A stretch of 64,000 bases of DNA from a virus, in IMG/VR virus record IMGVR_UViG_3300037424_001643, positions 1-64,000 of that record. One strand, written 5' to 3'. The position numbers were made by a program, and so were the translations under genes. A model generated the notes under the pieces. That model saw only the letters and a list, made by a program, of their open reading frames with translations. It had not been told where the DNA came from and did no database searches. This document shows positions 1,472 to 62,543 of this stretch, piece after piece. Within the stretch, counting starts at the first letter, position 1, and each line of letters starts with the position of its first letter.

Positions 1472-1815
1472 CTGGCCAGTTTGCTGTCGCGTTTACACAG
1501 TCAAGCCCCCGATGTCGATTTTTACACACGTCGGGGGAAGGAGTGAGCGGAGCCCCCGGCCCCCGAAATTCCCCCGTGGGGGTGCCCGGCAAGGTTTGCC
1601 GAGTGCCCTTCATCCATACCGCTAAGGCGACATGGAGTAACAAGTCACACAGGCTCAACGGCTTAGCGACGGATTGTGGTGTCCCTGCGTTGCACCACAA
1701 GGGAAGGCCGAGTAACCTAGTTGAGATTCGCCTTCGTATGTAAGTCATTGATGTGTAGCTAGTTTCGCTCCGTGTGATAGATACTGGAAGCATAGTGACA
1801 AGGACTTACCAACAT

Positions 1816-1855
1816 TTCTCAATCTCTCTCAATATCTTCCAATATCTTCCAAACG
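1816..1855. repeat. four degenerate tandem 10-bp units (TTCTCAATCT/CTCTCAATAT/CTTCCAATAT/CTTCCAAACG)
   Basis: Read directly from the sequence. The 10-bp period matches the helical repeat. It lies in an ORF-free region next to the stop of 1857..2501. Confidence 0.55.
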
Positions 1856-1856
1856 G

Positions 1857-2501
1857 TCAAGATTCGGCAGAAGTTGCCTTAATCGCAATCTCCTTCACAA
1901 CCTCTTGGCTCGCAGTAATTAGCGAATCTTTAATCTCACCATCCTGACAGCCCGACGCGTTCAAAGCTGTGATGATAGCTGCATGAAGGTCAGCAGGTTG
2001 AGAACCCGGTTGACCGGGCTTAATCGCGTCTTTGCGTTCCGTGGCCGTGTCGCCTAGCGCAGCGTATGTCATCGCGTGGCACTTCTCCATCGCTGCCGCC
2101 ATATCTGCCCAGAATCGCCCAGAGACTCGCACCACTCCGTTGCGGTCTGCCGTGGTGGAAACGTCCTTGATGGCGTCGCCTTCAAGCCCGCGAACATACT
2201 TGAGCATCCGGTCCATTGACTGACGGAACATGTGCGCTTGCACGTAGTTCAACGCGCGATTCGTTGCGCGCTCATAGTCGCCGGGCTTCTCGCTCTTCGA
2301 CATGACCGAGATGCGTCGAATCTTATCAAGCCAGCCCTCTTGCTTCGCGAGTGCATCCACGATTCGCGGGTCAATATCCAGCGCCGTGGCAGTCTTGTCG
2401 ATGTCGCCAATCGTGGCCATGAACACAAGAAAAATCTGGCTCACGTCCAACTCGGTCTTGTCAAGTGCAATCATCGCTTGGGTTTGTTCTTGGCATACCA
2501 T
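1857..2501 (-). CDS. hypothetical protein with N-terminal HTH-like segment (start may be 2474)
   Basis: 214-aa ORF. GDIDKTATALDIDPRIVDALAK looks like a helix-turn-helix. The ATG at 2474 forms an ATGA overlap with the stop of the upstream mini-ORF. Confidence 0.7.
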   Translation of the reverse strand: MVCQEQTQAMIALDKTELDVSQIFLVFMATIGDIDKTATALDIDPRIVDALAKQEGWLDKIRRISVMSKSEKPGDYERATNRALNYVQAHMFRQSMDRMLKYVRGLEGDAIKDVSTTADRNGVVRVSGRFWADMAAAMEKCHAMTYAALGDTATERKDAIKPGQPGSQPADLHAAIITALNASGCQDGEIKDSLITASQEVVKEIAIKATSAES

Positions 2502-2611
2502 TCGGCGCGTTTCTTATCACGGTCCGCCCGTTTGCCGTCGGAAAATAGCTTCTGCGCAGCGTGTGACGCACGCCCCATTAGCTTCTTTGCTGCCCGTTCT
2601 TTCTCGTCCAT
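2471..2611 (-). CDS. small basic hypothetical protein (46 aa)
   Basis: MDEKERAAKKLMGRASHAAQKLFSDGKRADRDKKRAEWYAKNKPKR. Its stop TGA overlaps the ATG at 2474. It is below the ORF-track size cutoff. Confidence 0.4.
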   Translation of the reverse strand: MDEKERAAKKLMGRASHAAQKLFSDGKRADRDKKRAEWYAKNKPKR

Positions 2612-2617
2612 ACGAAA

Positions 2618-2646
2618 AAGGGAGGCGAAGCCCAGCGCAGCGTCAA
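2618..2646 (-). promoter_or_regulatory. promoter candidate, TTGACG-N17-TCCCTT, 6 nt before ATG 2611
   Basis: Same geometry as the plus-strand boxes, but the -10 element is weak. Confidence 0.3.
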
Positions 2647-2751
2647 CGAGACGAAAAGGGCGGCAGCATCAATCAAACATAACCGGGAAATCATACTCCA
2701 TTACACAAAACATCTCCCTATATTCATAAAATAATAAGGAGAGGCATCCCA

Positions 2752-2763
2752 ATGGAATTCCAT
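2752..2763. promoter_or_regulatory. perfect 12-bp palindrome ATGGAATTCCAT in the divergent control region
   Basis: Self-complementary 12-mer in the AT-rich gap between the leftward and rightward operons. It is operator-like. Confidence 0.35.
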
Positions 2764-2830
2764 GAAGCTAGGAGACTGTTTGTCTGAAGGTTGTATGATT
2801 GGTGGACTATGAGTTATTGGATATGTTGTA

Positions 2831-2858
2831 TTGACGCAAGCGAACTATTGGCGACAAT
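2831..2858 (+). promoter_or_regulatory. sigma70-like promoter candidate, TTGACG-N16-GACAAT, 6 nt before ATG 2865
   Basis: The identical TTGACR-N16-GACAAT arrangement recurs at 3956 and 11919. Confidence 0.4.
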
Positions 2859-2864
2859 AAGGGT

Positions 2865-3733: not shown

Positions 3734-3758
3734 CACTGCGCAAGCAGTGTGATAGTCA
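3730..3758 (+). promoter_or_regulatory. promoter candidate, TTGACA-N17-TAGTCA preceded by TGn, 8 nt before ATG 3767
   Basis: The TTTGACA...GTGTGATAGT layout resembles the boxes at 7952 and 6669. Confidence 0.35.
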
Positions 3759-3766
3759 TTCACTTA

Positions 3767-3983: not shown

Positions 3984-4011
3984 ACCTAGACAGTAAAACT
4001 GAAACCTCTTT

Positions 4012-6668: not shown

Positions 6669-6696
6669 TTGCGTGTAAACGGTGATGTGATACTCT
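6669..6696 (+). promoter_or_regulatory. promoter/operator cassette, TTGCGT-N16-TACTCT with GTGTAAAC core, 6 nt before ATG 6703
   Basis: cccCTTGCGTGTAAACGGTGATGTGATACTCTtgaggtATG. The core GTGTAAAC is at 6673..6680. Confidence 0.4.
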
Positions 6697-6702
6697 TGAG
6701 GT

Positions 6703-6975
6703 ATGAAAATTGACCTGTATAACATTCCTCGCTTCCGCAAGTTCTCCGTCCGCTACGTCGGACCGAGTATGACCCGCCCTTCCCGCATCCGCATCATTGA
6801 CGAGCGGCACAAGTTGGCCAAGGTGGTCGTGTATGACTCCGAAATTGGTGACCTCGCCCAACAAGCGGCTTGCTACCTGAAGAAAGTCGGAATCTCCGTG
6901 GACGGGATGGCGCTGGGCAATCTTGACAGCGAAGTCCACTTGCTGTCACAGGATTTCGCAACGCCTCTCAAGTAA
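6703..6975 (+). CDS. hypothetical protein
   Basis: 90-aa ORF following the cassette. Confidence 0.65.
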   Translation: MKIDLYNIPRFRKFSVRYVGPSMTRPSRIRIIDERHKLAKVVVYDSEIGDLAQQAACYLKKVGISVDGMALGNLDSEVHLLSQDFATPLK

Positions 6976-7951: not shown

Positions 7952-7979
7952 TTGACGACGTGTAAACGTGTGATACCTT
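7952..7979 (+). promoter_or_regulatory. promoter/operator cassette, TTGACG-N16-TACCTT (TGA extended -10) with CGTGTAAACG core
   Basis: aaTTTGACGACGTGTAAACGTGTGATACCTTCTGG. The core is at 7960..7967. It lies 41 nt upstream of ATG 8021. Confidence 0.45.
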
Positions 7980-9003: not shown

Positions 9004-9032
9004 TTGACAGGCGTGTAAACGTGTGAGAGGCT
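9004..9032 (+). promoter_or_regulatory. promoter/operator cassette, TTGACA-N17-GAGGCT with CGTGTAAACG core, 9 nt before ATG 9042
   Basis: gaTTTGACAGGCGTGTAAACGTGTGAGAGGCTagtggtgttATG. The core is at 9013..9020. Confidence 0.4.
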
Positions 9033-9041
9033 AGTGGTGTT

Positions 9042-9734
9042 ATGAAAATCACTCACGACATTAAAACGGCGCTTTGGTGTGGCCCCGCGGCCATCTCCGC
9101 AGTGACCGGAAGACCGACCTCCGAAATCATGGCGCTAGCCCGGCACTTCACCGGCAAGAAGACCGTGAAGGGTTTGAGCGTTCGCGCACTGCGGCAGGTG
9201 TTGAACGCGCTGGGCTATCGCACCGACGAGATTTTTTCGGCGGGGCTCGAATTCTGCGCGGGCAATCCAAACTGGAAACCGACGCTGGCCAAGTGGACCA
9301 AAGAAAATGCCAAGGCATTTTCCAAGCTGCCGTGCGTCGTGCTGGTGTCTAATCATTACGTCACGGTGAAGGGACGCCAGTTGGTTGACACTTTCACGCC
9401 GGGCTTCGAGCCGGTGCCGCTCAAAAAAGCGCCGTGGCGTCGTGCCCGTGTGGCGAAAGTTCTGCGGGTCGAGAAGACAGAAGGACCGGTCTTCGTTCCG
9501 CCACCGCCGTTCAAACCCGTTGTCGAAACCGCTGGACGTGGCGCGGTGCTGCGGCTCGCTCGACAATACAATATCGAAGTGGACGACCAACAAAAGGAGT
9601 TTGACCAGATTTGGATTTATCCACCCCCGGCGCTTACTGACGGAGCGCTGGACCGTTTCGACGGGGACCATTGCGTCTTCGATTGGGCCGACGCAATGCA
9701 ACGGGTGAAAGGCTACATCTCTGACTTGAAGTAA
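9042..9734 (+). CDS. hypothetical protein, possibly a papain-fold (C39-like) cysteine peptidase
   Basis: N-terminal LWCGPAAISAVTG (a Cys in a CGPAA context) and a later VLVSNHYVTVKG (His) resemble the Cys/His arrangement of C39-like peptidases. This rests on pattern only. Confidence 0.35.
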   Translation: MKITHDIKTALWCGPAAISAVTGRPTSEIMALARHFTGKKTVKGLSVRALRQVLNALGYRTDEIFSAGLEFCAGNPNWKPTLAKWTKENAKAFSKLPCVVLVSNHYVTVKGRQLVDTFTPGFEPVPLKKAPWRRARVAKVLRVEKTEGPVFVPPPPFKPVVETAGRGAVLRLARQYNIEVDDQQKEFDQIWIYPPPALTDGALDRFDGDHCVFDWADAMQRVKGYISDLK

Positions 9735-10149: not shown

Positions 10150-10677
10150 ATGTCGAACCTCACTGATAACGCCGCCGAAGTCGGAAAGCACAAGTTTGAA
10201 CTGGCGGGGCTCGGGCTCGCGCCGTTCCGATTCGTCAGGGTGTCGGATAACGTGATTACCTATCCAGACGGCACCCAGAAGGCCGGGGGCTCGTGCGACT
10301 ACTGCGGGACCGGCATCCGCACGGAATGCCAGATTGTCAGCGCGGACGGCAAGCGCTCCAAGGTCGGATGCAACTGTATCGAGAAGGTCGGGGACGCGGG
10401 ATTGCTCAAGGCATATAAGACCAGCCCGGAGTTTCGCAAAGCGCTTCGCGAGAAGACGGCCAAGAAGAACGCCGCGGTATTCGAGGAACTCAAGGCACTG
10501 GTGGAGAAGTTGCAGCCGGTGCTCGCCACTCAGCCGCATCCGCGCGGTTTCCGGGATTTCAAAACGGGCGAGCGGTTGACCGCGTTCGACTCAGTGAAAT
10601 GGCTTTTTGAGAACTCAGGAGCATCGGGCCGGGCGAGTCTTTTGAGGGCGCTGAAGAAACAATTTGACGGCGTGTAA
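10150..10677 (+). CDS. hypothetical Cys-cluster (putative zinc-binding) protein
   Basis: MSNLTDNAAEV... with CDYCGTGIRTEC...VGCNC. The track's GTG start at 10135 lies inside the promoter box. Confidence 0.65.
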   Translation: MSNLTDNAAEVGKHKFELAGLGLAPFRFVRVSDNVITYPDGTQKAGGSCDYCGTGIRTECQIVSADGKRSKVGCNCIEKVGDAGLLKAYKTSPEFRKALREKTAKKNAAVFEELKALVEKLQPVLATQPHPRGFRDFKTGERLTAFDSVKWLFENSGASGRASLLRALKKQFDGV

Positions 10678-10692
10678 ACCTTGAACTACCTT
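10664..10692 (+). promoter_or_regulatory. promoter/operator cassette, TTGACG-N17-TACCTT with CGTGTAAAC core, 5 nt before ATG 10698
   Basis: aaTTTGACGGCGTGTAAACCTTGAACTACCTTctgtgATG. The stop TAA of the upstream ORF is the TAA inside GTGTAAAC (10675..10677). Confidence 0.4.
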
Positions 10693-10697
10693 CTGTG

Positions 10698-10919
10698 ATG
10701 TCAAACAAGCCCACACTCGAAGCCCTGAAGTCAGAAGTTGTCCGCGCGGGCTTCACCCTCTCGGCGGGGGCGTGGGAAGACGAACATGCGATTTACGCCG
10801 CTTCGGCTGAAGCAGTTCCCGGTTGCTATGGTCATCCGAAGTTCGAGGCGACATTCTGCAAGCGCACCGGCTGGCTTAGGCTGGGAAAACGACCGGCAAT
10901 TAAATTCACGGAAGCATGA
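10698..10919 (+). CDS. hypothetical protein
   Basis: MSNKPTLEALKSEVVRAGF... The track lists a GTG one codon upstream at 10695. Confidence 0.6.
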   Translation: MSNKPTLEALKSEVVRAGFTLSAGAWEDEHAIYAASAEAVPGCYGHPKFEATFCKRTGWLRLGKRPAIKFTEA

Positions 10920-11647: not shown

Positions 11648-11948
11648 ATGGATAAACCCACCATCCACCAACACACCACTCCCCGCGCGGCGCGACAGGG
11701 CGCAGCCGACGGGGCTTCTTTTTCCGGTTTCAGCAGTCCGGGGGCCGTGATTCAAGCCGCGTGCTACGGCCTTGCCTATGGCATGGGCGCAAAACGCTTC
11801 GCCGAAGGTCAAGATTAACACCAAGGCTGCGCGCAAGCTCATGGCGGCAGCGTGTAAACGATACGGTGTCGTGGGCATTGTCACGGGCCGGTTGACCGAC
11901 TGGCAAAATATCGGCACGTTGACGAAGCGCCAAAAGCGCCGACAATAA
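11648..11948 (+). pseudogene. frameshifted relic resembling the fingers region (motif B) of a bacterial-type family A DNA polymerase
   Basis: Frame 1 (11648..11818): MDKPTIHQHTT...AVIQAACYGLAYGMGAKRFAEGQD*. A second frame continues as KINTKAARKLMAAACKRYGVVGIV... to 11948. Compare Pol I DIHxxTA...RxxAKxxNFGxxYGMSxxxLAxxLxIxxxEAxxxxxxYFxxYPGV. The motif-B lysine is replaced by Q. Confidence 0.4.
11919..11946 (+). promoter_or_regulatory. promoter candidate, TTGACG-N16-GACAAT, 8 nt before ATG 11955
   Basis: Third copy of the TTGACR-N16-GACAAT arrangement. Confidence 0.4.
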
Positions 11949-14166: not shown

Positions 14167-14624
14167 CCACCGAGGGACATTACGAAGAATTTGGGATTTA
14201 CGCCCCCAACTCAAAAAAATCTATGAGCGAAAATACCACAAAGAAAACTCGGGCACTTCCCCGAGTATGGAAACAAATCAAGCACCTGCAACACGGCGAC
14301 CTGTTTTACCTCGGAAAGATTCTCGTGGCCAAAACGAGTTTCTTTACCGCCCGCGAGTTTGAATTCGATTCATGCCTCGGGCGTCCGTCGCTGACCGGGG
14401 ACGGCCATTTCGTCTGGCCTTGGCGGCGCGTGAAGACGACTCAGCTTGTGCGCGACGCGAAGCCGGGCGGCAAGAGCAGTCAGGACTTGACTATGAGTCG
14501 CGCCACCGAGAACAGTCTCGAAGCGGCACGTTTACACGAAGCGCGCAAAGACGACTGCGGAGTCATCGAAATAAAGTCGGTGCAGCCGAACAGCGACAAC
14601 AACGTCACCGGCCCCACGAGCTAA
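14163..14624 (+). CDS. hypothetical protein
   Basis: 153-aa ORF. Confidence 0.65.
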   Translation: MTTEGHYEEFGIYAPNSKKSMSENTTKKTRALPRVWKQIKHLQHGDLFYLGKILVAKTSFFTAREFEFDSCLGRPSLTGDGHFVWPWRRVKTTQLVRDAKPGGKSSQDLTMSRATENSLEAARLHEARKDDCGVIEIKSVQPNSDNNVTGPTS

Positions 14625-17267: not shown

Positions 17268-18811
17268 ATCCCGCAGGACTGTTAGACTATCAGATTCCGG
17301 CGGCGGAAAAATTGGTCTCCGCCATCAACGTCTTTGGAGCCGCTTTGGACGCGAGCGAGATGGGCACCGGCAAGACCTATAACGCCGGGGCGGTCATCCG
17401 CCATTATGACTGTCCGACGTTGGTCATGTGTCCGGAAGTCACAATTCCCGGATGGCAGCGCATGGGCGCGGCGATGGGAATCGAGTTCAGTATCCTGAAC
17501 TATGAAATGCTCCGCACGGGCCGGACGCCTTACGGCTGGTGGGAGAATCCGCCGCCGAAACGACTCCCCACAAAATTCAAATGCACTCAATGTCGAACCG
17601 TCGTGGACCCGGAGAAACCGGTTCCGTGTCACCTTCACCACTTGGGCATTCACTGTGTAGAGACCGAAACTATTCCGCACGACTATGGCAAATTCACTTG
17701 GGCTCCCGAAATCAAACTGCTGGTCGTCGATGAAGCGCACCGTTGCAGCGCGGTTGATTCTCTCCACGCTGATATGCTCATTGCGGCTGGACGACAGAAG
17801 ATTAAAACTCTCCTGCTCTCCGCCACTGTTGCAGAGTCCCCGATACAGCTTCGCGCCATCGGATTTTTACTTCGATTACACAACCTCATTGACTCTCGAA
17901 TACCGGGCAGTCCTGTCGGGTTCTACAAGTGGGCAATGGGCCTCGGTTGTCGCAAGCTACCGTTTCAGGGATTCCATTTTGCTGTTGGAGAAGAACGGCG
18001 AAAGGAGATACTTTCTCGACTGCATTCCGACATCTTTACTCGGCGCGGATGCCGAGTCCGCATTGAAGACTTGGGAGATGCGTTCCCAGATTGTCAGGTC
18101 ACTGCGGAACTCTACCACGCCGAAAAAGCTGGACGGGCAGAAGAACTCTTCCGAACAATGGAAGAGGCAATCCGCACCCTCAATGACATTCGTGAGGGAG
18201 ACCCGGAACATCCCCTCACGGTGCTGTTGCGTGCAAGCCAAGAAGTCGAGTTGCTGAAGGTGCCCATCTTCGTTGAACTGACAACTGATGCGTTAGCAGA
18301 AGGCAAGCATGTCGCCCTTTTCGTCAACTACCGGCAGACGGTTGAGGAACTGTGTAAACGGTTGAAGACCCAGTGCCGCATAGACGGCTCCCAGACGGGC
18401 GTTAGGGGGGCCAAGGTGCGAGCGGCGAACGTGGAGGACTTCCTGCATGACCGGGAGCCTGTAATCGTCGCCAGCGCGGCGGCGGGGGGTCTCGGCATCG
18501 GACTGCACGACATTCTCGGGAGGTTTGGACGGCTGGGGCTGGTATCGCCCGGCTTCTCCGCGAAACAGTTTCGGCAGATTCTCGGGAGACTCCGACGGCA
18601 GGGCGGCAAGTCCACGGCGCTATATCGGGCAATCTTCATGGCGGGAACACCGGACGAAAAGCGGCACAAAGCGCTTGCAGCGAAGCTGGACTGTATCGAC
18701 ACACTGAACGACGGAGATTTATTTCCGAATCTGGTCTTGACAAAATTCCGCGAGCGGGTTATTGACTTAGAGACTGACATGCCGACAACACTGAAAACAT
18801 TCAAAATATGA
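17264..18811 (+). CDS. SNF2/DEAH-type superfamily 2 helicase
   Basis: Motif I is SEMGTGKTY, motif II LLVVDEAHRC, motif III LLLSAT, and motif VI QILGRLRRQG. A Cys/His insert is present (KCTQCRTV...CHLHHLGIHC). Confidence 0.8.
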   Translation: MNPAGLLDYQIPAAEKLVSAINVFGAALDASEMGTGKTYNAGAVIRHYDCPTLVMCPEVTIPGWQRMGAAMGIEFSILNYEMLRTGRTPYGWWENPPPKRLPTKFKCTQCRTVVDPEKPVPCHLHHLGIHCVETETIPHDYGKFTWAPEIKLLVVDEAHRCSAVDSLHADMLIAAGRQKIKTLLLSATVAESPIQLRAIGFLLRLHNLIDSRIPGSPVGFYKWAMGLGCRKLPFQGFHFAVGEERRKEILSRLHSDIFTRRGCRVRIEDLGDAFPDCQVTAELYHAEKAGRAEELFRTMEEAIRTLNDIREGDPEHPLTVLLRASQEVELLKVPIFVELTTDALAEGKHVALFVNYRQTVEELCKRLKTQCRIDGSQTGVRGAKVRAANVEDFLHDREPVIVASAAAGGLGIGLHDILGRFGRLGLVSPGFSAKQFRQILGRLRRQGGKSTALYRAIFMAGTPDEKRHKALAAKLDCIDTLNDGDLFPNLVLTKFRERVIDLETDMPTTLKTFKI

Positions 18812-24127: not shown

Positions 24128-26150
24128 TTTTGAGACCTACTACAATGAAGCCGAAGGGCTCGGCATCAAGCAACAAGGCACTTGGAAGTATTGCCACGAC
24201 CCTCGCTTCGATGCATATCTGATTTCGGTTTGTGATGGCAAGAACTCTTGGGCCGGGCAACCGAAGAACCTTAATTGGGACGCGTTAGAGGGAGAACTTA
24301 TCCTGTCGCACAACCGCTATTTCGACTCGTCCGTCTATGAAGTCATGGTTGAGCGCGGGGTATTCCCGAAAATCAATTTCGCGGGCTGGGAATGCACCGC
24401 TAACCTGACGACCTACCTTTGTATGCGCCGCGACCTCGGTCGGGCGTGCGAATTCCTGCTCGGAGTGCAACTCGACAAGAGCGTCCGTGGCGAGGCCGAC
24501 GGCAAGGGCTGGGATGACTTGGTGAAAGAAGATGGTGGCGCGTCCATGCTCGAATACGCGCGCAAGGACGCCTATTACTGTTGGTTGTTATGGCACAAGT
24601 TTGGGCATCTGTGGCCCGAACGGGAGCGGAAGCTGTCGAACATCTCCATTGACCAAGGGCAGCGCGGCGCGCAAATTGACGAAGACAAACTTAATCGGTT
24701 CATGGCGGTTGCACAGGAGATGCTGATTGCGATGGAACTTCGGTTGCCGTGGATGAAGCAGGGTAAAAAGCCCACGAGCCCGAAGGCCATCGCCGAAGAG
24801 TGCCGTAAGCACAATATCCCACCGCCCCCCATCAAGAACCCGAAGAAAAAACCGACGGCGGACTACAACGGCGAAGAGGCGTATGAGGAGTGGTCCGCGC
24901 TTTTCGCGCCTCGCTTTGAGTGGGTCAAGGCTTATGCAGATTACCGTGTCGTGGAGAAACTATTGGGCACCCTTGAGACCATCAAGGAACGTTTACACCC
25001 CGATGGCGTGTTCTCGTATGACATGCTTTACTTCGGGGCACATACCGGTCGCTGGGCGGGCGCGGGCGGTTTCAACATGCAAAACCAAAGAAAATTGCCC
25101 TACTACCGCGCAATAGACGGCACCCTGATTACCTGCCCGAAGCTTCTGGCGAACATTGAAGACAGTCTGCGAGTCGATAAGCGATTGCCCGACTTCGTTT
25201 CTGATGTCCTCGACATCCGTTCCCTGTTCATCGCGCGCCCCGGTAAAAAATTGCTGATTGGCGACTTGAGCCAGATTGAACCGCGCGTGCTGGCGTGGCT
25301 GGTGGACGACCACGCGATGCTCACGATGATGGGGGCCGGAAAATCACCTTATCAGGCTCACGCGGAAGCGACGATGAACTGGACGCGCGGGGACATGAAG
25401 AGTTTAATCAAGGCGGGGGACGGCGAAGCCAAAAACCTTTACGCGCTCGCCAAAGCGCGCGTGCTCGGTCTAGGCTTCGGTTGCGGATGGAAAAAGTTTA
25501 TCACCGTCGCGCAGGTGATGGCGGGTTTGGACATCACCGTTGACGACCCGGAGATGGTGCCAGTTTTGAACGAGTTCGGAGACCAGTGCATAGGCAAGGA
25601 CGGAAAGCCGCTCTTTGAGTCCGGATACGGATTCAACAGCAAGCGAATCGTGAAAGAATACCGCGAACAAAATCCCCTGATTACGGGCCTGTGGGAAACC
25701 TTGGACAACGCCCTCCGCGAGTCGGTCGGCAGTGATTTTTCGATGACCCTCCCGAGCGGGCGGGTGATGCGTTACCCGGAAGTGCGACGCGGGCGCAAGC
25801 CAATCGTGGACCCAGAGAACCCCAAGAAAATTACGCACAAGTGGGAGACTTCGGCACTTGCCTTCGACCAGAAATACAATCGGGTCGTGCGTAAGGGTTT
25901 CTACGGGGGAATCCTTTGTGAAAATTTGGTGCAGGCCACGGCGCGCGACGTGTTCGGAGAAATCGTTATCGACCTCGCAGAGACCTCAGGGATGGACGTT
26001 CTTTTCACGGCTCACGACGAAGCGGTGGTGGAAGCAGACTCTTCGGCGACAAAGAGAGATGTCGAAGAGATAATGAGTCGCACGCCGGAATGGATTCCGG
26101 GGCTCCCGGTGTCGGCGGAGGTCGTAGAATCTCAATGTTATTTGAAATGA
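24111..26150 (+). CDS. family A DNA polymerase with 3'-5' exonuclease domain
   Basis: Exo motifs are VDFET, SHNRYFD and YARKDAYY. Pol motif A is IGDLSQIEPRVLAWL, motif B KARVLGLGFGCGWKKF, and motif C FTAHDEAVVE. Confidence 0.85.
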   Translation: MPIAVDFETYYNEAEGLGIKQQGTWKYCHDPRFDAYLISVCDGKNSWAGQPKNLNWDALEGELILSHNRYFDSSVYEVMVERGVFPKINFAGWECTANLTTYLCMRRDLGRACEFLLGVQLDKSVRGEADGKGWDDLVKEDGGASMLEYARKDAYYCWLLWHKFGHLWPERERKLSNISIDQGQRGAQIDEDKLNRFMAVAQEMLIAMELRLPWMKQGKKPTSPKAIAEECRKHNIPPPPIKNPKKKPTADYNGEEAYEEWSALFAPRFEWVKAYADYRVVEKLLGTLETIKERLHPDGVFSYDMLYFGAHTGRWAGAGGFNMQNQRKLPYYRAIDGTLITCPKLLANIEDSLRVDKRLPDFVSDVLDIRSLFIARPGKKLLIGDLSQIEPRVLAWLVDDHAMLTMMGAGKSPYQAHAEATMNWTRGDMKSLIKAGDGEAKNLYALAKARVLGLGFGCGWKKFITVAQVMAGLDITVDDPEMVPVLNEFGDQCIGKDGKPLFESGYGFNSKRIVKEYREQNPLITGLWETLDNALRESVGSDFSMTLPSGRVMRYPEVRRGRKPIVDPENPKKITHKWETSALAFDQKYNRVVRKGFYGGILCENLVQATARDVFGEIVIDLAETSGMDVLFTAHDEAVVEADSSATKRDVEEIMSRTPEWIPGLPVSAEVVESQCYLK

Positions 26151-29495: not shown

Positions 29496-30037
29496 ACGCG
29501 CTCGCGATTGACCTAGGCACGACCACGGGCTACGCTCTCTCCGTGGAGGGGGGAGATTTTTTCGCGGGCTCGTGGCTTCTCGCCTCCCCCGCGGTCGTCA
29601 CTCAGGCCAAGCGCGACCGCCTCGACCGGCGTCTCGACCCGCGAATCCCAATTTTCGACCAGACCCTTCGCCGGGAGTTACCGCTGTTCAAAGTTGACTG
29701 GCTCTTTTTCGAGGATGTTCAGTTTGGAAAAACGCTTCAACAGGTGCAACTCTGGTCTAGCTTTCGTGGGGTGCTCTGGGCGGCGGCGGCGGCATACAAC
29801 GTGCGGGTCGAATGCTGCCCCGTGGGCACCCTGAAGAAGTTCGGCTCGGGGTTCGGAGGGTCAGACAAGAACGGAATGGCCTACGGACTGTGTAAACGCG
29901 ACCCCGACCGGTTCAAGTTGGTCGGCAAGAAAGTAAAAGACTGTGTTACGGGTCAGATTTTGGATGACAATGCAGTGGACGCCCTCCACCTATTAAAGTG
30001 GGGTCTGGAATTGACCCGAAACTGGAAACGAAGCTAA
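29492..30037 (+). CDS. RuvC-like Holliday junction resolvase
   Basis: Catalytic acidic residues sit in the expected contexts: AIDLGTTTGYA, LFFEDVQF and DDNAVDALHL. Confidence 0.65.
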   Translation: MNALAIDLGTTTGYALSVEGGDFFAGSWLLASPAVVTQAKRDRLDRRLDPRIPIFDQTLRRELPLFKVDWLFFEDVQFGKTLQQVQLWSSFRGVLWAAAAAYNVRVECCPVGTLKKFGSGFGGSDKNGMAYGLCKRDPDRFKLVGKKVKDCVTGQILDDNAVDALHLLKWGLELTRNWKRS

Positions 30038-32127: not shown

Positions 32128-32159
32128 AAAGGCCCGTCCGATTTCTCGGACGGGCCTTT
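32128..32159. terminator. bidirectional rho-independent terminator at the convergent junction
   Basis: AAAGGCCCGTCCG-atttct-CGGACGGGCCTTT. The stem carries a T-run on both strands. Confidence 0.75.
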
Positions 32160-32179
32160 GTCGTTTAGCGTGTAAACGC

Positions 32180-45311: not shown

Positions 45312-47271
45312 TGGCTAGTTCTCCTTGCGACACAATTAGGGGCAACTGTTCTTCGAGATTGTGACTCGCCAACCGCCGCGCAATACACGTCGCAATGTAA
45401 TCCGCGTTCGCCTGAGAGATGACACTCTCCGCCGAACCCGAAGCGACTTCCGTGATGCCCTCCTGTGTGACTGTCTCCACGCGCGTTGAATTGAACACCG
45501 GGTTATTTACACCAAAATCGACAATCGCTTCGGGAATTGTTTCCGCTTCCGCGGCCCCGCCGTCCGCGCGGACGTAGTTCCCTTCCGTTTCGTCTTTCTC
45601 GCACCGGCCCGATTCGTTTTCGTTGATGACTGGCGACGTGTAAGTCGTATATCCGCGAATCGCACCGGGACCCGAACCGACAATCAAAAGTTGAAACGCC
45701 TCGTCACGAAACTCCTCGTGCGGGTCTTCGACGTCGCACGACGACAGCGGTTCGTCTAGGTGACTCGCTTTCGCATCGACAGTGCGCAACGGACGAGACT
45801 GTTTCTTCGACGAAAAGAGAATGTCCTCGTAGTTGAACTCCACTTCCCCCACGAAAGGTCCGACGGACGCCTGAATCCGCTTGGTCATAATTTGCTTGTA
45901 GCGCCCGCGATAGGCCCCCGCATAGAAGACCGCAAAATCAACCTGACCTTCAAGCTCCGTGCTGAACACTTCGGCGAAGTGGAAATCCTTCAGGAAACCT
46001 GGAAGCCGTCCGTTCAGCGCGCGAGTTTCCATCCACCAAGTAATCGGGCAACCTTCGTCGAGCCGGTCAGGGGTGAACGCTTCCCAGAGACGATTTACAC
46101 CGTCCACGTCGGCAGAAACATACAGGCAACGATTACGACCGTTGACGTTTTCGGTCGCCCACTGCACCGGACGCGTGCCGGTCCAAAACGAATTCCACGC
46201 GGGCGATTCATTGCCGCCAACTTTCAACGGGGCTTGGTCAAGAACCCAAGTATGCGTGTTGTAGTTGCTCGAATGCGGAACGCTCACGAGGAGGTAATTC
46301 TCGAAGGCCGCACAGGCGACGCCGGACAAGTCTTCTGAGAGTCGCGCCTTGCTGTCGGTCATGGCGTCGTCCTGATAGGGCAGGGACGAGGTTACGTTCG
46401 TCTGCGCGGCAGAGTCCAAAGAGGTCAACCCATATTCGCTGAACCACCACAAATAACCGTGCTGGGCAATGACTGAGCGCTGCGAAACACAACCGACGTC
46501 GAAAATCTGTTTCTGAAAATCCACCGTCTGCGACCAGAGAGCGCGGGCACGAACCCCGGCTTGCACCATACTGGTCGTTTTGTTCGTGTAAACGAAAAGC
46601 TGGCCCGTCTGCACTGCCGGATTCGTGGCAAGCGCCGTGACCGTGTCCGGGAAGACCAACGAGCCCGCGCCGGACACATACAGAGACTCGACAAAGGCCA
46701 GCGGGTTTCCCAAGTCGGACGCATACACGCGCGAGTCGCGCGCGACCCAGAGCCGGTCGCCGACCCACGCCATCGGCCCGCCGACGGGAAGCTTGCCGAC
46801 TCCGCGCTGCGCCTCGAAAGTCGTGCCATCAAACGACACGCCTGCCGAGAAACCGCCGTCTTGGATAATCAGGAGATTCTTGGGATTCGACAGGAAAGAA
46901 ATGGACCCATCTTCATTCGACACGACGGCCTGTTCTACCTGTTGAAAGTAAATCTGACTGACAATCGACGACATGGAAATACCGTCAATGAGCCGCCAAC
47001 TGCCGTAGGGGAAATCACAAACATACAGCCGACCGGCGACAGCGACCACGACAATCGGAATGCCAATCTTCGGCTTGAAGACGTGGAACCCTTGAAGCAG
47101 TCCGTCTGGGAGAGCCGTCAAACACCGGTATCCGGGACGGCATTGAACGATGCCCCCGCGATTCACCACGTTCATTCCGCGCGCGTAGAAGCCGCCCGGC
47201 AACTGCACCGGGTCAATGCTGCTATTCTGTCCGAGGATGAACGAGAAATCGGATTCGGGAGTCTTGGGCAT
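45304..47271 (-). CDS. large beta-rich structural protein (possibly tail tubular or nozzle protein B-like)
   Basis: 655-aa ORF directly after a 312-aa gene, the order seen for podovirus tubular proteins. The call rests on size and position only. Confidence 0.45.
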   Translation of the reverse strand: MPKTPESDFSFILGQNSSIDPVQLPGGFYARGMNVVNRGGIVQCRPGYRCLTALPDGLLQGFHVFKPKIGIPIVVVAVAGRLYVCDFPYGSWRLIDGISMSSIVSQIYFQQVEQAVVSNEDGSISFLSNPKNLLIIQDGGFSAGVSFDGTTFEAQRGVGKLPVGGPMAWVGDRLWVARDSRVYASDLGNPLAFVESLYVSGAGSLVFPDTVTALATNPAVQTGQLFVYTNKTTSMVQAGVRARALWSQTVDFQKQIFDVGCVSQRSVIAQHGYLWWFSEYGLTSLDSAAQTNVTSSLPYQDDAMTDSKARLSEDLSGVACAAFENYLLVSVPHSSNYNTHTWVLDQAPLKVGGNESPAWNSFWTGTRPVQWATENVNGRNRCLYVSADVDGVNRLWEAFTPDRLDEGCPITWWMETRALNGRLPGFLKDFHFAEVFSTELEGQVDFAVFYAGAYRGRYKQIMTKRIQASVGPFVGEVEFNYEDILFSSKKQSRPLRTVDAKASHLDEPLSSCDVEDPHEEFRDEAFQLLIVGSGPGAIRGYTTYTSPVINENESGRCEKDETEGNYVRADGGAAEAETIPEAIVDFGVNNPVFNSTRVETVTQEGITEVASGSAESVISQANADYIATCIARRLASHNLEEQLPLIVSQGELANE

Positions 47272-48579: not shown

Positions 48580-49671
48580 TCAAAAAAGAGCGGTATAGAA
48601 TCGGATAGTGGCCACGTCCAAGGCTTTTGCAACGCCTCCACCGTCTCGGGTTCGGACGGACACGCCGGTCCCCAGAAGGTCGCCGAAGGAGGGTAGATGG
48701 GTAGTGGACGTGTAAACAAGCGTGCCGTTGATGTAGAACCGAACGGCGCTTGCCAGCCGGTCCCACTCCATCGACAGCGCCACAAAAACGGTGGTGCTCA
48801 GGGCAATGCCTGTGTCAACAACGGTCTGAGAGCCGTTGTCCCCGCAAACGATAGTCCAGTTCGCATCCCCGGCCTGCGTCGAGTATCTGAAACCAAAATA
48901 TCGGTGGGGGGAGACGGCGTTCGACGGATTGTCATTTGCCCGCAAGCCCGTCCCCGATAACGCAGCGCCGTTTGCCGCGGAGGCCCAAATGGAACACAGT
49001 GTCGTCTGCACTGGCATGACCAAAAAAGTAACCTTTGACCGGTAGGCTAAATTCAACAGAAGAGTGCTGTTGTTAAAAACTACCGCGGAATTGTCTAGCA
49101 CCGTCGTAGTGAGGCAGCGGTGACTCGGCAGAGTCGTTCCACTTGAGGGGACTTGAAAGGTCGCCCCCGAAGTTCCCCACACGTCGCCGTAGCTAAGGGT
49201 GCCGCCGGAATTAGAACTCCATTGTGCCGACTTGGTTCCCGTCCACCACGAACGGCTCCACGAGGTCACATAATCGACAGAGGAATCTTTGCGTAGAAAA
49301 TCCAGCCGTCCGCCACCGACCGGTAATCCGCTGCCTGCGGCTCCGGTTGCGCCGGTTGCGCCGGTTGCACCCGCTGCTCCGGTTGCGCCGGTTGCGCCGG
49401 TTGCGCCGGTTGCGCCGGTTGCACCCGCTGCTCCGGTTGCCCCCGCTGCTCCGGTTGCGCCGGTTGCGCCGGTTGCTCCTGCGGGACCCGCCGGACCCGA
49501 GGGGCCTTGGAATCCTTGAATGCCCGCGATTCCTTGCGACCCCACCGTGCCGACACGAGTCGAAAGAATTTTCTTGATTCGGAAGCTTCCGTCGGGTTGC
49601 TCGACGGACATGAAACAATATGCACGACTCGGCTGAGTCAATTGCTCGTTGTATTCAGTGACCTTTGCCAT
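48580..49671 (-). CDS. collagen-like repeat fibre protein (paralog A)
   Basis: The ATG is at 49671. The 40-aa N-terminus contains [13 protein letters not shown], followed by 25 G-X-Y triplets (mostly GAT/GAA) and a beta-rich C-terminal domain. Confidence 0.75.
49327..49551 (-). repeat. G-X-Y coding tandem repeat (9-bp GGTTGCGCC-type units on the plus strand)
   Basis: Read directly from the sequence. It encodes aa 41-115 of paralog A. Confidence 0.8.
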
Positions 49672-59536: not shown

Positions 59537-61665
59537 ATTGCACCCCCCGCCGTCGGCTGCGTCGGCTGTTCCCCGCTAATCTCGCTCGCGACCTCGTCGG
59601 CCTGCTGCGCGGCGAGCGCCGCCTGCTGCTGCTCGACTTCGTCGAGTTGTTGAATCGCCCCCTTGATTTGATTCAAAAGGTCTCCCACCGGCTTCAGTTC
59701 GTCCTTGTTTCCGCCTGCGGCGAGTGCCGCATCAAGATGCCCCTGCGCATGAATGTAAATCGCCTTCAGCGTTCCGAGTCCCGCCGGGTCTTGTGCCGCC
59801 ACCGGCGCAGCCTGTTCCATCGCGGGCATCAAAACACTCAAATGCACCTGATGGTTGTCACGCGGAGAAATCGGAACCTGCGCACCCTGACCGACAATCA
59901 GTAGAAGCTCCAACTGCTGAAGTCGTGTCTGCTCTGCCGTGACTGTCGGGTCTTCCTCCGGAAGCAGCACCGCATCGGCGAACTCCTCGTCGATTTGCGC
60001 CGTGAGTTTCCGACGTTCAAGCTCCCGCTGGTCATACAACGGATTTCCCCGGCCTTCCGTGGCCGCGATGACCACGGCCTGCCGTTCCAATTCGGTGTAG
60101 TCCTTGACTGTCTCGGCCACCGGTCGCTTGGAAATCAAATCAAGCTCCTCGCGAGTCATCACCTTGAGCAAACGCTCCTGCATCTCCTTGGCGTCTTCGT
60201 CCGCGGTCTTGGGGTCGCACATGCGTCGTTGCATGGTGCCCACGTATGACGCGAACTGAGTGAGAAAACGCCCAATGATATTGTCTCGCCCCTCTTCCTC
60301 GCGGCCCGCGAGCAGATTCACGGCAGCGGCAGTCACGCGCTCGCCTTCAAGGGCGCGCGGCGTCACGGCTCCCGCCATCTGGTCGAGCAAGGAGGTCAGA
60401 AATTGGTCCAGCGTCAGAAAAGGCTCGACTGCGGCATCGAGTTTCATCTGGTTAATTGTGAACCCGTTTTCAATGAGAATCGCATTCCCGACCACCGACA
60501 TCTTGAACTTCTTAATCTGCTTCGGGTCGCCCTGAATGATGACCTTCCCCGCGAGATTCAGCCGGTCAACAACTTCGTTGCGACTCTTGTCAAGCATCGA
60601 CGCCATGTTGTAGATTTCACGGCCAATCCCCTTCGAGCCATGCAGCTTTCCGTTGCCCTGCTGGAAAGAAAAGAACGCGACCGCGTCTTTCATCGTCGGA
60701 TACTGTTCCTCCCGCTCAAAGAGCACCGTCTTTTTGTCGAGCGCGGGGTCGGCCTTCGTGCTGGCGCTTTCCGTCTTCTCCAAAATGATGTAATGCGAAA
60801 TCTTCCCGGAAATCTCCTGTGCGAGCAGATGCCACACCGATACTACCAGCGCGCCTGCCTCGTGAGAGAGCCCCACGTTGCATTCCCGAATCAAGTCCTC
60901 GTAAACCCTCTCCCAGCCCATCTCTTTCGAGCGCCGGTCTTCCGGCATGGCGTTGTTGATGGCGTCGAGAGTGTTCTGGATATTCCAACCCACCGTCTTC
61001 GCCGCTTCGGTCTCTTCCACCAGCGCAAAGAGTTCGTGGACGAGGAAAGTCTCGCGCATCGCGACGATTTGAGCCGAGTCAGGAAGCTGACCGGTGCCCG
61101 TCGGAACGAAGAAGCTATCCTGCCGAAAATGCTTTGGAAAATAGTGAAATTCATCCAGCCACGAGCAACAAGTGAACCCGAAAAGCGCATTCTCTTGCGC
61201 GATTTCCGAAATGAGATTGTTCCAGCCGGGGCGTGCGCGCAATGTGCTCGTGATTTCTCGCCGGAACGCTTCCGTCTTCACGTCCGCGCCGGGGACATCT
61301 TCCGGGAAGGCGGAGTTCGTCAAAAACTTCGCCGCATCCACCGCCTTTGAAAATCGTGGCGCGACTTTATCAATGAGCACCGGAAGCGGCTTGGTGGTAA
61401 AGTTGGACTTCCATCCAACTCCCTCCGCCTTCAACTGCTCAGTGGAATAGGGTTTCTCTGAGTTGTATTTCGCCATGATGCGCGCATTCTTGAGGTTACG
61501 CTCGCGCGCAGCCTCCTGAAGTGACCGCACGATGTTCCGCGCCTGCGTTACCGACGAAATTGCGTGCCGCTTCGGCTTCCCCTTGGGAGAGAGTTCAGGT
61601 GTGTTTACCGACCCGGTGGTGCTACCGGAGTGGTCTAGCGAAGAATCTTCCGTAGAAAGTGGCAT
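59533..61665 (-). CDS. portal protein (putative)
   Basis: 710-aa ORF two small genes downstream of TerL and upstream of the scaffold gene. Size and order are typical of a portal. Confidence 0.6.
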   Translation of the reverse strand: MPLSTEDSSLDHSGSTTGSVNTPELSPKGKPKRHAISSVTQARNIVRSLQEAARERNLKNARIMAKYNSEKPYSTEQLKAEGVGWKSNFTTKPLPVLIDKVAPRFSKAVDAAKFLTNSAFPEDVPGADVKTEAFRREITSTLRARPGWNNLISEIAQENALFGFTCCSWLDEFHYFPKHFRQDSFFVPTGTGQLPDSAQIVAMRETFLVHELFALVEETEAAKTVGWNIQNTLDAINNAMPEDRRSKEMGWERVYEDLIRECNVGLSHEAGALVVSVWHLLAQEISGKISHYIILEKTESASTKADPALDKKTVLFEREEQYPTMKDAVAFFSFQQGNGKLHGSKGIGREIYNMASMLDKSRNEVVDRLNLAGKVIIQGDPKQIKKFKMSVVGNAILIENGFTINQMKLDAAVEPFLTLDQFLTSLLDQMAGAVTPRALEGERVTAAAVNLLAGREEEGRDNIIGRFLTQFASYVGTMQRRMCDPKTADEDAKEMQERLLKVMTREELDLISKRPVAETVKDYTELERQAVVIAATEGRGNPLYDQRELERRKLTAQIDEEFADAVLLPEEDPTVTAEQTRLQQLELLLIVGQGAQVPISPRDNHQVHLSVLMPAMEQAAPVAAQDPAGLGTLKAIYIHAQGHLDAALAAGGNKDELKPVGDLLNQIKGAIQQLDEVEQQQAALAAQQADEVASEISGEQPTQPTAGGAM

Positions 61666-61943
61666 GTCTTAAAAAAGAGACGTAGAAGCGCCGCGGGCGT
61701 CAACCGGACGGATTTCCAATAACCGAGGGGACACTTCTCGGTCTTGAACTGAATTTTCAGGTCCACCTGACAGGCGCAGACGTTGCACTGCCGGACGTAT
61801 TTGTCGAAATGCACGCACGTTTCACACAGCGAGAGCCGCCGTTCGAGCGTTTCGGCGTCCACAAGCGGATTTTTGCCCTTCAAGAGTGCGCAAAGCACTC
61901 GTTTCAAGGCTCTTAGGGCGGAAAAAGGGTTGGGGAAACGCAT
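61635..61943 (-). CDS. small Cys-rich (zinc-binding-like) protein
   Basis: CETCVHFDKYVRQCNVCACQVDLKIQFKTEKCPLGYW. Confidence 0.55.
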   Translation of the reverse strand: MRFPNPFSALRALKRVLCALLKGKNPLVDAETLERRLSLCETCVHFDKYVRQCNVCACQVDLKIQFKTEKCPLGYWKSVRLTPAALLRLFFKTCHFLRKILR

Positions 61944-61955
61944 AAAAGGGAAGAC

Positions 61956-62543
61956 TCAGTCGCTTTTTCGTCGCCAGCACTCTGCCGGGAGACTCGGCTC
62001 GGCTTCCGGGGCCTGTTCAATGTGGACCGAGACGGTGCAATCTTCCCCGAGAGCCGAGCAGGGGCTAAGATTCTGATGCTGAGATTCCCTTCCGTCGAGA
62101 ATCACCTTCCTCGACGTCTTTACGGAGGAAATACATGCCTCACATGCGGCATTCAATGCCTGCTGACGCGGACAGCGCGCACAAATTGCCGCGCGGTCGG
62201 CGGCGACCGAATCCTCGACGCGCGGAATAGCGTGTAAACGCTTACGGCTAAGTTGAACGCTATACCACTGCAAAACCCGCTGATTGTGGCTCTGGCTGTG
62301 GCTCTGGCTGTGGTGGTTGGGCGGAACGTGTGGGGCGTTCGGACGACATAAGTGAGGCATCTTGGCACACAGTTGCGCCGACACTTCGACCTCGGGGTCG
62401 CCCGGCGCGAACTTGTTGATTTCCCGATAGCGTCGAATCTGCTCAAAAAGATGCCGCCACGATTCGCCCTTATGAATTGTCCCGTCCCTATCCACGAATT
62501 TTCTCCCCCCATCGGGGAAGACATTCCAATTGAATTCGGACAT
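61956..62543 (-). CDS. Cys-rich hypothetical protein with SQSH repeat
   Basis: 195 aa. It has HHSQSHSQSHNQ plus CARCPRQQALNAACEAC. Confidence 0.6.
   Translation of the reverse strand: MSEFNWNVFPDGGRKFVDRDGTIHKGESWRHLFEQIRRYREINKFAPGDPEVEVSAQLCAKMPHLCRPNAPHVPPNHHSQSHSQSHNQRVLQWYSVQLSRKRLHAIPRVEDSVAADRAAICARCPRQQALNAACEACISSVKTSRKVILDGRESQHQNLSPCSALGEDCTVSVHIEQAPEAEPSLPAECWRRKSD

Follow-up and report, generated by a model that had tools for sequence, protein, structure and literature searches.

A dispersed near-palindromic word in an uncultured tailed phage and its relatives is a candidate operator of leaderless early promoters

The stretch of DNA analyzed here (64,000 bp, hereafter the window; positions 1 to 64,000 of the IMG/VR virus record IMGVR_UViG_3300037424_001643) comes from an uncultured tailed phage with a full genome of about 71.5 kb. 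It contains exactly 15 copies of the 8-mer GTGTAAAC, 11 on the plus strand and four on the minus strand (16 in the 71.5-kb genome). Together with a one-letter variant found in related phages, this word forms the unit (C/t)GT(G/T)TAAAC(G/a), which we read, with a probability of about one half, as a dispersed operator of a symmetric dimeric regulator that binds double-stranded DNA (dsDNA) and probably represses early promoters. A sharp 10-bp near-palindrome, selection at the DNA level, a single tolerated base and placement between the -35 and -10 boxes of promoters together suggest that the reader is probably a dimeric dsDNA-binding protein. Such a protein, once bound, would exclude RNA polymerase, and the word would mark a set of early promoters silenced as a group, as might happen at the early-to-middle transition. 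The conserved copies within genes and at the convergent terminator junction may have auxiliary functions (as roadblocks, loading sites or looping partners) or may serve this protein in another role.

Enrichment of the word and selection at the DNA level

The over-representation of GTGTAAAC was noticed in a first-pass annotation of the window and is confirmed by exact counting. The 15 copies compare with 0.83 expected from dinucleotide-preserving shuffles of the window, none of which reached 15 in 100 trials, and enrichment persists against Markov models of order 3 (1.2 expected) and order 5 (4.0 expected). The 10-mer CGTGTAAACG has nine copies in the window versus 0.08 expected. Among all 8-mers, GTGTAAAC is the second strongest outlier, at a density of 2.3 copies per 10 kb, and it behaves in an all-or-none manner, the 24 one-mismatch variants totaling 23 copies versus 29 expected. 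The strongest outlier is the 9-bp collagen repeat of the tail-fiber genes. The other enriched word, GCGCAACCGG, is unrelated to the motif and reflects this 9-bp period: it and its relatives form tandem 9-bp repeats on the minus strand (49343-49478, 50418-50472 and 51403-51439), which encode collagen-like Gly-X-Y in three paralogous tail-fiber genes and explain the other top-ranking k-mers.

Non-coding DNA, about 7% of the sequence, holds seven of the 15 copies. For the eight copies inside genes, shuffling of synonymous codons with the proteins kept gave an expectation of 0.99 and a maximum of five in 2,000 shuffles. These copies occupy three reading frames in unrelated genes and are translated as V-Y-T (three copies), R-L-H (three) or C-K-R (two); three of them use TTA, which accounts for only 3% of leucine codons. 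A peptide or codon effect explains none of the intragenic copies, and the word is under selection at the DNA level.

We give almost no credence to an artefactual enrichment caused by composition, codon usage, peptide conservation or the duplication of promoter cassettes. The copies at 7960, 9013 and 10672 do have longer flanks in common (ATTTGAC...CGTGTAAAC) and may have arisen by cassette duplication, and the copy in the primase gene sits in a conserved peptide. However, 13 copies are left when the possible cassette duplicates are discounted, the dinucleotide shuffles, the Markov models to order 5 and the synonymous-codon shuffles all reject chance, the copies are spread over unrelated genes and three frames, and at least ten related genomes are independently enriched.

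Twelve of the positions listed in the first-pass annotation are right, and three are corrected in Table 1 (11852 rather than 11862, 26737 rather than 26747 and 62232 rather than 62231). The longer identities described there are real, with some coordinates revised: AGCGTGTAAACG is found at 11849, 32167 and 62229 on the plus strand and at 26736-26747 on the minus strand, and AGCGTGTAAACGCTTA is identical at 32167 and 62229. A 17-mer, GACTGTGTAAACGCGAC, is shared between 29886 (plus) and 1486-1502 (minus), i.e., around the copies at 29890 and 1491, and CGTGTAAACGTGTGA is common to the copies at 7960 and 9013. The strand bias that had been claimed is not significant, either in the window (11:4, two-sided binomial p = 0.12) or in the whole genome (12:4, p = 0.08). 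With respect to transcription, eight copies are sense, six are antisense and one lies at a convergent junction, and the 10-mer is self-complementary at eight of its ten positions.

Two forms of the word and their conservation in related phages

No sequenced phage isolate is close to this phage by DNA or terminase matches, and the window DNA polymerase has at most 30% identity to that of any sequenced phage. Protein-anchored searches recovered a family of metagenomic phage genomes of 65-76 kb (designated below by L numbers), the closer of which, with proteins 59-87% identical, were obtained through two protein searches. In an unbiased k-mer ranking of the relatives' loci, the top or near-top word was repeatedly GTTTAAAC, a perfect palindrome one letter away from GTGTAAAC. 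Both forms occur within one genome (G and T forms, respectively: three and two in L258, one and three in L260, one and two in L261). The first-pass annotation had proposed absence from close relatives as grounds for refutation; in 331 kb of the close clade, GTGTAAAC occurs 35 times versus 4.5 expected, so the refutation fails. The counts over the same 331 kb are 23 versus 2.4 for GTTTAAAC, 58 versus 6.9 for both forms together, 3 versus 2.7 for GTATAAAC and 2 versus 2.2 for GTCTAAAC, and all other neighbor words tested there are at expectation. Among 59 pooled sites, C is found at position -1 in 43 and G at position +1 in 44, with no conservation or symmetry beyond 10 bp. The unit thus described, (C/t)GT(G/T)TAAAC(G/a), is a 10-bp palindrome that tolerates G in one half-site.

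Direct evidence that the G and T forms are functionally equivalent comes from orthologous promoters that carry either form. The window promoter at 6673 has the G form and its L264 counterpart at 5288 has the T form (the downstream proteins are 66% identical), and the same difference separates L258 at 9724 (G form) from L261 at 4145 (T form), both at orthologous small genes upstream of the SprT-like gene. Since GTTTAAAC replaces GTGTAAAC within one genome and at orthologous promoters, the orientation of the word probably carries no information. The polar readings put forward in the first-pass annotation, namely a DNA-tracking, Chi-like, packaging or replication-orientation signal, are disfavored, given the free replacement of the word by the palindrome and a strand bias short of significance; nor was the host over-representation expected of a Chi-like hotspot seen among the matches listed in the genome scan described below. 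More generally, the apparent strand bias of a near-palindromic word need not imply a polar, tracking-type signal. A hairpin or cruciform signal (CG-TGTAAA-CG with a GNRA-like GTAA loop) was also rejected, as the flank pairs are complementary at the level of chance (18-20 of 59).

Several copies outside promoters are conserved in position. The primase copy (V-Y-T, GTT TAC ACG) is present in five genomes (the window, L258, L260, L261 and L001) with invariant third codon positions, whereas six of six neighboring conserved amino-acid columns with multiple codons vary (Fisher p = 0.012). The helicase copy at 18352 is also found in L258 at 5489, and a copy in the homolog of gene 29998-30603 is common to L260, L261, L128 and L129 and has been lost in the window. 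The window copy at 29890 (L-C-K-R) was considered as the counterpart of the A-F-K-R site of L128 and L129 and rejected, since the latter site belongs to the following gene, in which the window reads F-G-R. The copy at 32170 marks the meeting point of the replication and late modules, 32180-32779(-) being the first leftward gene; at the convergent junction of L258, GTTTAAAC lies in the terminator loop, and the window copy lies beside the terminator. At greater distances the positions of the copies turn over and their density is kept.

Placement of the word in leaderless promoters

Early and late genes of the window share a general layout, TTGAC(N)-N16/17-TAnnnT-like box-N5-7-ATG, with TTGAC 31-38 nt before the start codon in 14 of 74 genes. 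These elements look like sigma-70-type promoters for leaderless mRNAs. A feature overlooked in the first-pass annotation is that five copies of the word, at 1491(-), 6673, 7960, 9013 and 10672, lie in the -35/-10 spacer of such promoters of early genes, where they overlap or directly follow the -35 box (TTGAC or cTTGC). TTGAC is located 0-4 nt upstream of four of the 15 copies (P = 6e-6 for at least four of 15 random positions). The proteins encoded downstream of the motif-bearing promoters are unrelated orphans. For the copy at 1491, the assignment of CAAACT as the -10 box is putative; gene 962-1438, whose leaderless start is some 55 nt downstream of this frame, has its own TTGACA-N17-ACAGTA promoter. 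The 16-mer TTGACGGCGTGTAAAC of the promoter at 10664..10700 recurs in L258 at 9716-9731.

Aligned on the motif, 17 promoter-embedded copies (five from the window and 12 from relatives) fall into two fixed classes. Class 1 has the structure cTTGC-motif-N10-(-10 box)-N6-ATG, with 10 nt to the -10 box in all five examples, and class 2 has the structure TTGAC-N3/4-motif-N5-7-(-10 box)-N5-6-ATG. The motif registers of the two classes are 3-5 bp apart, and the motif ends 16-23 nt before the ATG in 12 of the 17 copies. In the early regions of relatives, all four copies of L264 and two of the six copies of L267 are promoter-embedded, and single examples occur in L258, L261, L128, L031 and L011.

The first-pass view of the word as a stand-alone recognition site rather than a promoter box is borne out: the word occurs in more than one register relative to the -35 box, and no suitably spaced -10 box accompanies the intragenic copies. 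The word itself was rejected as a -35 or -10 element: its start is 5-10 nt past the first T of the -35 box, another 5-10 nt separate its end from the -10 box, and if it were the -35 box, transcription would start past the ATG. No TAnnnT-like -10 box was found 6-7 nt downstream of the eight intragenic copies, so they are not promoters themselves, and an extracytoplasmic function (ECF)-type promoter, in which the word would be a -35 element with an AAC core, was rejected since no common -10 box lies 16-17 nt downstream. The position in the promoter core, the sound -35 and -10 boxes and the two registers favor a repressor over a position-dependent activator; repression rather than activation is what we infer from geometry only.

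Two more distant relatives have sharply conserved -10 boxes of their own, GGTAACTAT and GGTAACTGTT, with the ATG about 7 nt after. They were observed in L024 (e.g., at 1258, 1575, 3557, 6138, 9008 and 12301) and L008 (868, 1305, 4336 and 8466), often with a TTGACA-like hexamer 16-17 nt upstream, and are distinct from GT(G/T)TAAAC, which L024 carries as well.

Search for the protein that reads the word

Besides the sigma factor, AP2 domains are the only recognizable sequence-specific dsDNA-binding modules in the window (12971-13474, 19898-20452, 23630-24127 and 31953-32114). They belong to a set of five or six paralogous HNH (HNH_3) endonuclease genes among the replication genes, several of which have AP2 domains. 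The last of the four is a 53-aa open reading frame (ORF) that encodes only an AP2 domain, lies 56 nt from the copy at 32170 and may be a remnant. The sigma factor (28812-29495 on the plus strand, 227 aa) has regions 2 and 4, is conserved in relatives and is closest in region 2 to SigA/RpoS rather than to ECF sigmas. Outside the window, a 118-aa ORF has a weak sigma-r4-like helix-turn-helix (HTH), and a serine-recombinase-like protein of 238 aa is encoded about 4 kb upstream of the terminase start (10249-10965 in L268, a contig of the same phage described below). The latter combines a Resolvase N-terminal domain (E = 1e-26) and the catalytic motif YMRVSSAGQ with a partial Recombinase domain; its gene was present in 16 of the family loci examined, in each case 1.5-3 kb upstream of the terminase, and candidate roles are multimer resolution, integration or packaging.

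The product of 22792-23448 was rejected as the reader, being SprT-like and not a binder, and those of 21766-22719, 29998-30603 and 1857-2501 had no matches among solved structures. Protein scans detected no KorA, KorB or ParB homolog, and no methyltransferase domain was found in the proteins scanned. The remaining candidates for the reader are the AP2-domain proteins, already suggested in the first-pass annotation, the serine-recombinase-like protein, an undetected small early protein and a host factor.

Evaluation of alternative explanations

Five observations weigh against a dispersed operator of early promoters. Searches of about 70 proteins against Pfam, PHROGs and PDB sequences found no HTH or ribbon-helix-helix regulator, and 10 bp is little for the operator palindrome of a classical HTH dimer. 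Promoter occlusion does not account for a conserved copy midway through a helicase or polymerase gene. In distant relatives the copies are mostly intragenic, with 14 of 51 in non-coding DNA and two or three adjoining TTGAC, and the early region of L109 has zero copies; these two findings show that promoter control cannot be the sole role of the word and may not be ancestral.

Some weight attaches to the reading of the word as the site of a DNA-transaction protein, such as an HNH-AP2 nicking enzyme, a D5-like primase-helicase initiator or the serine-recombinase-like protein, which we regard as possible and clearly less probable than an operator. Its placement in promoter spacers would then follow from the spacer being nearly the only unconstrained DNA in a 93%-coding genome, in keeping with the share of copies in non-coding DNA noted above (7/15 in about 7%). 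The genomes of T5-like phages, with their localized nicks, offer a parallel for a nicking enzyme. The mostly intragenic copies of distant relatives, away from promoters, the conserved copies within primase and helicase genes, an all-or-none sharpness that is more enzyme-like than regulator-like, the numerous HNH-AP2 paralogs and the recombinase-like gene in 16 of the family loci all fit such a protein. However, the adjacency to the -35 box (P = 6e-6) far exceeds the effect of non-coding DNA, and two fixed geometries recur in relatives. Sixteen recombination or origin sites per genome would be destabilizing, the copies do not cluster as in iteron origins, and no candidate protein is linked to the word. 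Serine-recombinase (resolvase/invertase) sites need a dyad of 24-30 bp around a central dinucleotide, and they were rejected as no imperfect dyad of that size is found among the 59 pooled sites, where nothing beyond 10 bp is conserved.

An activator site would share the promoter placement of an operator. On this view, delayed-early or middle promoters would depend on a phage protein that sits beside or on top of the -35 box and recruits or remodels RNA polymerase in a MotA-like manner. The cTTGC class, with a weak -35 box (TTGCGT) overlapped by the word and 10 nt to the -10 box in five of five cases, has the appearance expected of such promoters, and the phage encodes its own sigma factor, so reprogramming of the polymerase does occur. 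We nevertheless hold activation to be improbable: the second class combines consensus TTGAC and sound -10 boxes with a word 3-5 bp nearer to the -10 box, an activator dependent on the face of the helix would not tolerate both registers, and the intragenic copies have no -10 box at a matching distance.

A comparably low probability attaches to a host origin of the word, either as the binding site of a host regulator that the phage has co-opted or as a genome-wide host word (Chi-, uptake- or HIP1-like) mirrored in the phage. Consistent with it, the word is kept across phages whose early genes share no detectable homology, its one-letter forms are reminiscent of the dialects seen in uptake sequences and HIP1, the roughly 70 proteins scanned yielded no reader encoded by the phage, and the genome has clearly been shaped by host restriction systems. 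In a scan of one genome per species (185,579 species of bacteria and archaea), we looked for two copies of the 10-mer no more than 30 nt apart, a criterion meant to flag any genome with a Chi-like density of the word or higher. No dispersed enrichment was seen among the matches listed, which is weak evidence, the host not being identified; isolated copies occur there at 0.17 per 10 kb (background, from 847 kb retrieved around the matches listed) versus 2.3 in the window. The word shows no enrichment in unrelated phages that were retrieved by the same polymerase search, Chi or uptake roles would leave the fixed promoter geometry unexplained, and all Chi sites known to us are asymmetric and polar, whereas here a palindrome substitutes freely.

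The matches listed in the pair scan comprised only period-8 tandem arrays, hairpin repeats with a TGTAAA loop and actinomycete LacI-type operators. The period-8 arrays of GTNNNAAC (L138-L257, from bacterial and archaeal metagenome-assembled genomes) have AACGT every 8 bp over 5-23 units and end 2-20 nt before the starts of unrelated housekeeping genes (PheT, AtpG, PurA and ABC transporters) in Chloroflexota, Acidobacteriota, Planctomycetota, Omnitrophota, KSB1 and Bacteroidota. We know of no described function for these arrays, and they were rejected as kin of the phage word as they precede unrelated housekeeping genes and no link was shown.

Restriction-site avoidance and the G form

All 16 copies in the genome are of the G form, and the window is depleted of palindromes. 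GATC and GTAC are absent from it (about 100-300 of each expected), as is TTTAAA (0 versus 4-12 expected), and 28 of 64 six-base palindromes are missing versus about 3% of other hexamers. CTAG occurs 41 times versus 55-240 expected, and palindrome avoidance was also noted for positions 7970-15506 of L268. In the relatives, GTAC is nearly absent from most genomes and GATC avoidance varies (L028 has 176 copies). As TTTAAA is part of GTTTAAAC and GTAC is part of the doubly substituted GTGTACAC, GTGTAAAC is the only member of the symmetric family that this avoidance allows.

These facts invite the speculative view, to which we assign a low probability, that host restriction pressure rewrote a regulatory word: from an ancestral palindrome, CGTTTAAACG, 16 sites would have been converted to GTGTAAAC while TTTAAA, GTAC, GATC and the 28 of 64 palindromes were purged. 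A symmetric dimer would then tolerate G or T at one position of each half-site. If true, this would explain both the false strand-oriented look of the word and its all-or-none sharpness, and the dimer would also hold the sites in replication genes and at the terminator junction, indicating a role beyond promoter control. Against it, relatives poor in TTTAAA keep this hexamer inside the motif (three of three in L128, three of four in L129 and two of two in L003), and across loci overall palindrome avoidance shows no correlation with the form used. Only the specific absence of TTTAAA fits the form used, and few copies of that hexamer are expected per 20 kb. Phages normally deplete the sites of restriction enzymes rather than enrich them, as seen here for GATC, GTAC and most 6-bp palindromes. 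With one genome that has only the non-palindromic form and relatives that mix both, the family offers a natural test of restriction avoidance acting on a regulatory sequence.

Comparison with known systems

By analogy, we would class the unit with operator words that are dispersed over a genome and embedded in promoters, such as those of the L5, P1 and RK2 systems, from which its very short palindrome, leaderless-promoter context and conserved intragenic copies would set it apart. The gp71 operators and stoperators of the Cluster A mycobacteriophage L5 are tens of near-identical short sites distributed genome-wide; one overlaps the -35 region of an early promoter and the others are distributed elsewhere, including in and between genes of all modules, with variants in relatives. 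The word resembles them in its dispersal (16 exact copies over 71.5 kb), its overlap with promoter cores and its variant in relatives. The L5 sites are asymmetric, 13 bp long and recognized by a monomer; most of them lie between genes, and their orientation follows transcription, whereas here a 10-bp near-palindrome follows no orientation rule (eight sense, six antisense), several promoters carry it instead of one, and no repressor gene or lysogeny module was identified.

The C1 operators of phage P1 and the inverted repeats that the phiC31 repressor recognizes exist in many conserved copies that control several separate promoters. They belong to temperate phages with known repressors, are 17 bp long and lie nearly all at promoters. 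The word shares with them the scattering of one sharply conserved sequence over the genome and differs in that half of its copies are intragenic. The IncP plasmid RK2 has conserved 12-13 bp palindromes, the KorA (GTTTAGCTAAAC) and KorB operators, read by dimeric global repressors, some over promoter cores, some at a distance and some far from promoters. The KorA half-site GTTTA/TAAAC resembles GTTTAAAC, a resemblance that we treat as a lead only; the RK2 system is that of a plasmid, and the absence of KorA, KorB and ParB homologs here was noted above.

The MotA boxes of phage T4 are 9-bp words in the -35 to -25 region of middle sigma-70 promoters, where they replace the -35 box at a fixed distance to the -10 box and are confined to promoters. 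Here, in contrast, a consensus -35 box is usually present, two registers exist and many copies lie outside promoters. Chi, uptake sequences and HIP1 are exact 8-10-mers over-represented throughout host genomes, coding and non-coding DNA alike, with lineage-specific one-letter variants; a genome-wide word of the uptake or HIP1 kind would be expected at about 1 per kb or more along the host chromosome. They are not tied to promoter cores, and no host with the word was seen among the matches listed. The LacI/GalR operator (14-16 bp with a central CG, TGTAAACGTTTACA) was rejected, as the window copies match only its left half (GTGTAAACG) and have no downstream GTTTACA; among the pair-scan matches listed, full LacI-type palindromes were seen only in actinomycete genomes. 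A DnaA box (TTWTNCACA, with an invariant CACA core) is matched by GTTTACACG at seven of nine positions but was rejected, as the interchangeable GTTTAAAC breaks the CAC core. A full-text literature search for the word returned primer noise only.

Genome context and other features

A Logan contig, L268, matches the window at 100% identity over positions 1-7969 and 62499-64000 and adds the missing 7,537 bp of the genome. A metagenome scan with one early orphan protein gave no match, and a scan of viral collections for TTTGAC-N2/3-CGTGTAAACG gave only 17 single, unrelated chance matches. The gene blocks of the window are listed in Table 1 together with the copies of the word. The 2,422-aa virion-module protein (32946-40214 on the minus strand) has zero motif copies over 7.3 kb; as its 2,721-aa homolog in L258 has ART-PolyVal and DUF7178 domains, we take it to be a polyvalent protein that is probably injected. 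The ORF for the terminase large subunit (62556-64000 on the minus strand) extends past the window end, giving 470 aa from the first in-window start codon versus 630 aa in the full genome. The early region also encodes a tRNA-Thr with anticodon UGU (5274-5347 on the plus strand), and ACA is a minor Thr codon here (10%). Just upstream of the copy at 1491, an inverted repeat, TCCCCCGA...TCGGGGG, occupies 1511-1542 on the minus strand with GTGTAAAAA in its 18-nt loop, and a similar GTGTAAAAAAA is found in L003 about 25 nt upstream of its GTTTAAAC at 573.

Table 1. Copies of GTGTAAAC, associated promoter elements and other features (window positions unless a locus is named)
Feature	Positions	Strand	Context
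Motif copy	1491..1498	-	intergenic, directly 3' of cTTGACt, upstream of gene 962-1438(-)
Motif copy	6673..6680	+	overlaps -35 box (cTTGC-GTGTAAAC) of the promoter of gene 6703-6975
Motif copy	7960..7967	+	promoter spacer, TTGACgac-GTGTAAAC-gtgtga-TACCTT
Motif copy	9013..9020	+	promoter spacer, TTGACaggc-GTGTAAAC
Motif copy	10672..10679	+	promoter spacer; TAA of the motif doubles as stop codon of gene 10135-10677
Motif copy	11852..11859	+	probably non-coding; 60 nt upstream of -35 box of the promoter of gene 11955-12548
Motif copy	14530..14537	-	inside gene 14163-14624, antisense, R-L-H with rare TTA
Motif copy	18352..18359	+	inside helicase gene, sense, L-C-K-R
Motif copy	24991..24998	-	inside DNA polymerase gene, antisense, R-L-H with TTA
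Motif copy	26737..26744	-	inside D5-like primase gene, antisense, V-Y-T
Motif copy	29890..29897	+	inside RuvC-like gene, sense, L-C-K-R; 108 nt upstream of start of gene 29998-30603
Motif copy	32170..32177	+	convergent junction, between terminator hairpin and stop codon of gene 32180-32779(-)
Motif copy	46586..46593	+	inside late gene 45304-47271(-), antisense, V-Y-T
Motif copy	48710..48717	+	inside tail-fiber gene 48580-49731(-), antisense, V-Y-T
Motif copy	62232..62239	+	inside gene 61956-62543(-), antisense, R-L-H with TTA
Promoter-like frame	1478..1504	-	-35 TTGACT 1504-1499, motif, candidate -10 CAAACT 1483-1478
Promoter, cTTGC-motif-N10-(-10) class	6669..6705	+	TTGCGT 6669-6674, -10 TACTCT 6691-6696, ATG 6703, leaderless
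Promoter	7952..7979	+	-35 TTGACG 7952-7957, 16-nt spacer with motif, -10 TACCTT 7974-7979; upstream of 8021-8476
Promoter	9004..9044	+	-35 TTGACA 9004-9009, 17-nt spacer with motif, weak -10 GAGGCT 9027-9032, ATG 9042
Promoter	10664..10700	+	-35 TTGACG 10664-10669, 17-nt spacer with motif, -10 TACCTT 10687-10692, ATG 10698, leaderless
Leaderless promoters	2831-2867, 10115-10152, 22774-22809, 26549-26586, 40215-40255(-), 48545-48580(-)		examples
Intrinsic-terminator-like hairpin	32130..32157	+	AGGCCCGTCCG-atttct-CGGACGGGCCT, then TTGTCGTTT; 12 nt before the copy at 32170
HNH/AP2 family	12971-13474, 15206-16291, 16918-17253, 19898-20452, 23630-24127, 31953-32114	+	
Short block	1-2600	leftward	
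Early block	2.8-14 kb	rightward	small orphan genes
Replication block	14-32 kb	rightward	helicase, two exonucleases, family A DNA polymerase, D5-like primase, sigma factor, RuvC-like
Late block	32-64 kb	leftward	2,422-aa virion protein, collagen-like tail fibers, terminase
GTNNNAAC arrays	L157 171-338; L176 5115-5410; L198 5709-5820		examples

Implications for the phage family

If the word is indeed a dispersed operator, an uncultured family of 70-kb soil phages would control its fast-evolving orphan early genes by one short site, embedded in ordinary promoters for leaderless mRNAs. For phages beyond the reach of cultivation, the word would then provide a handle on the early promoters and the regulator that controls them, and the combination of promoter and operator may represent a compact, portable cassette.

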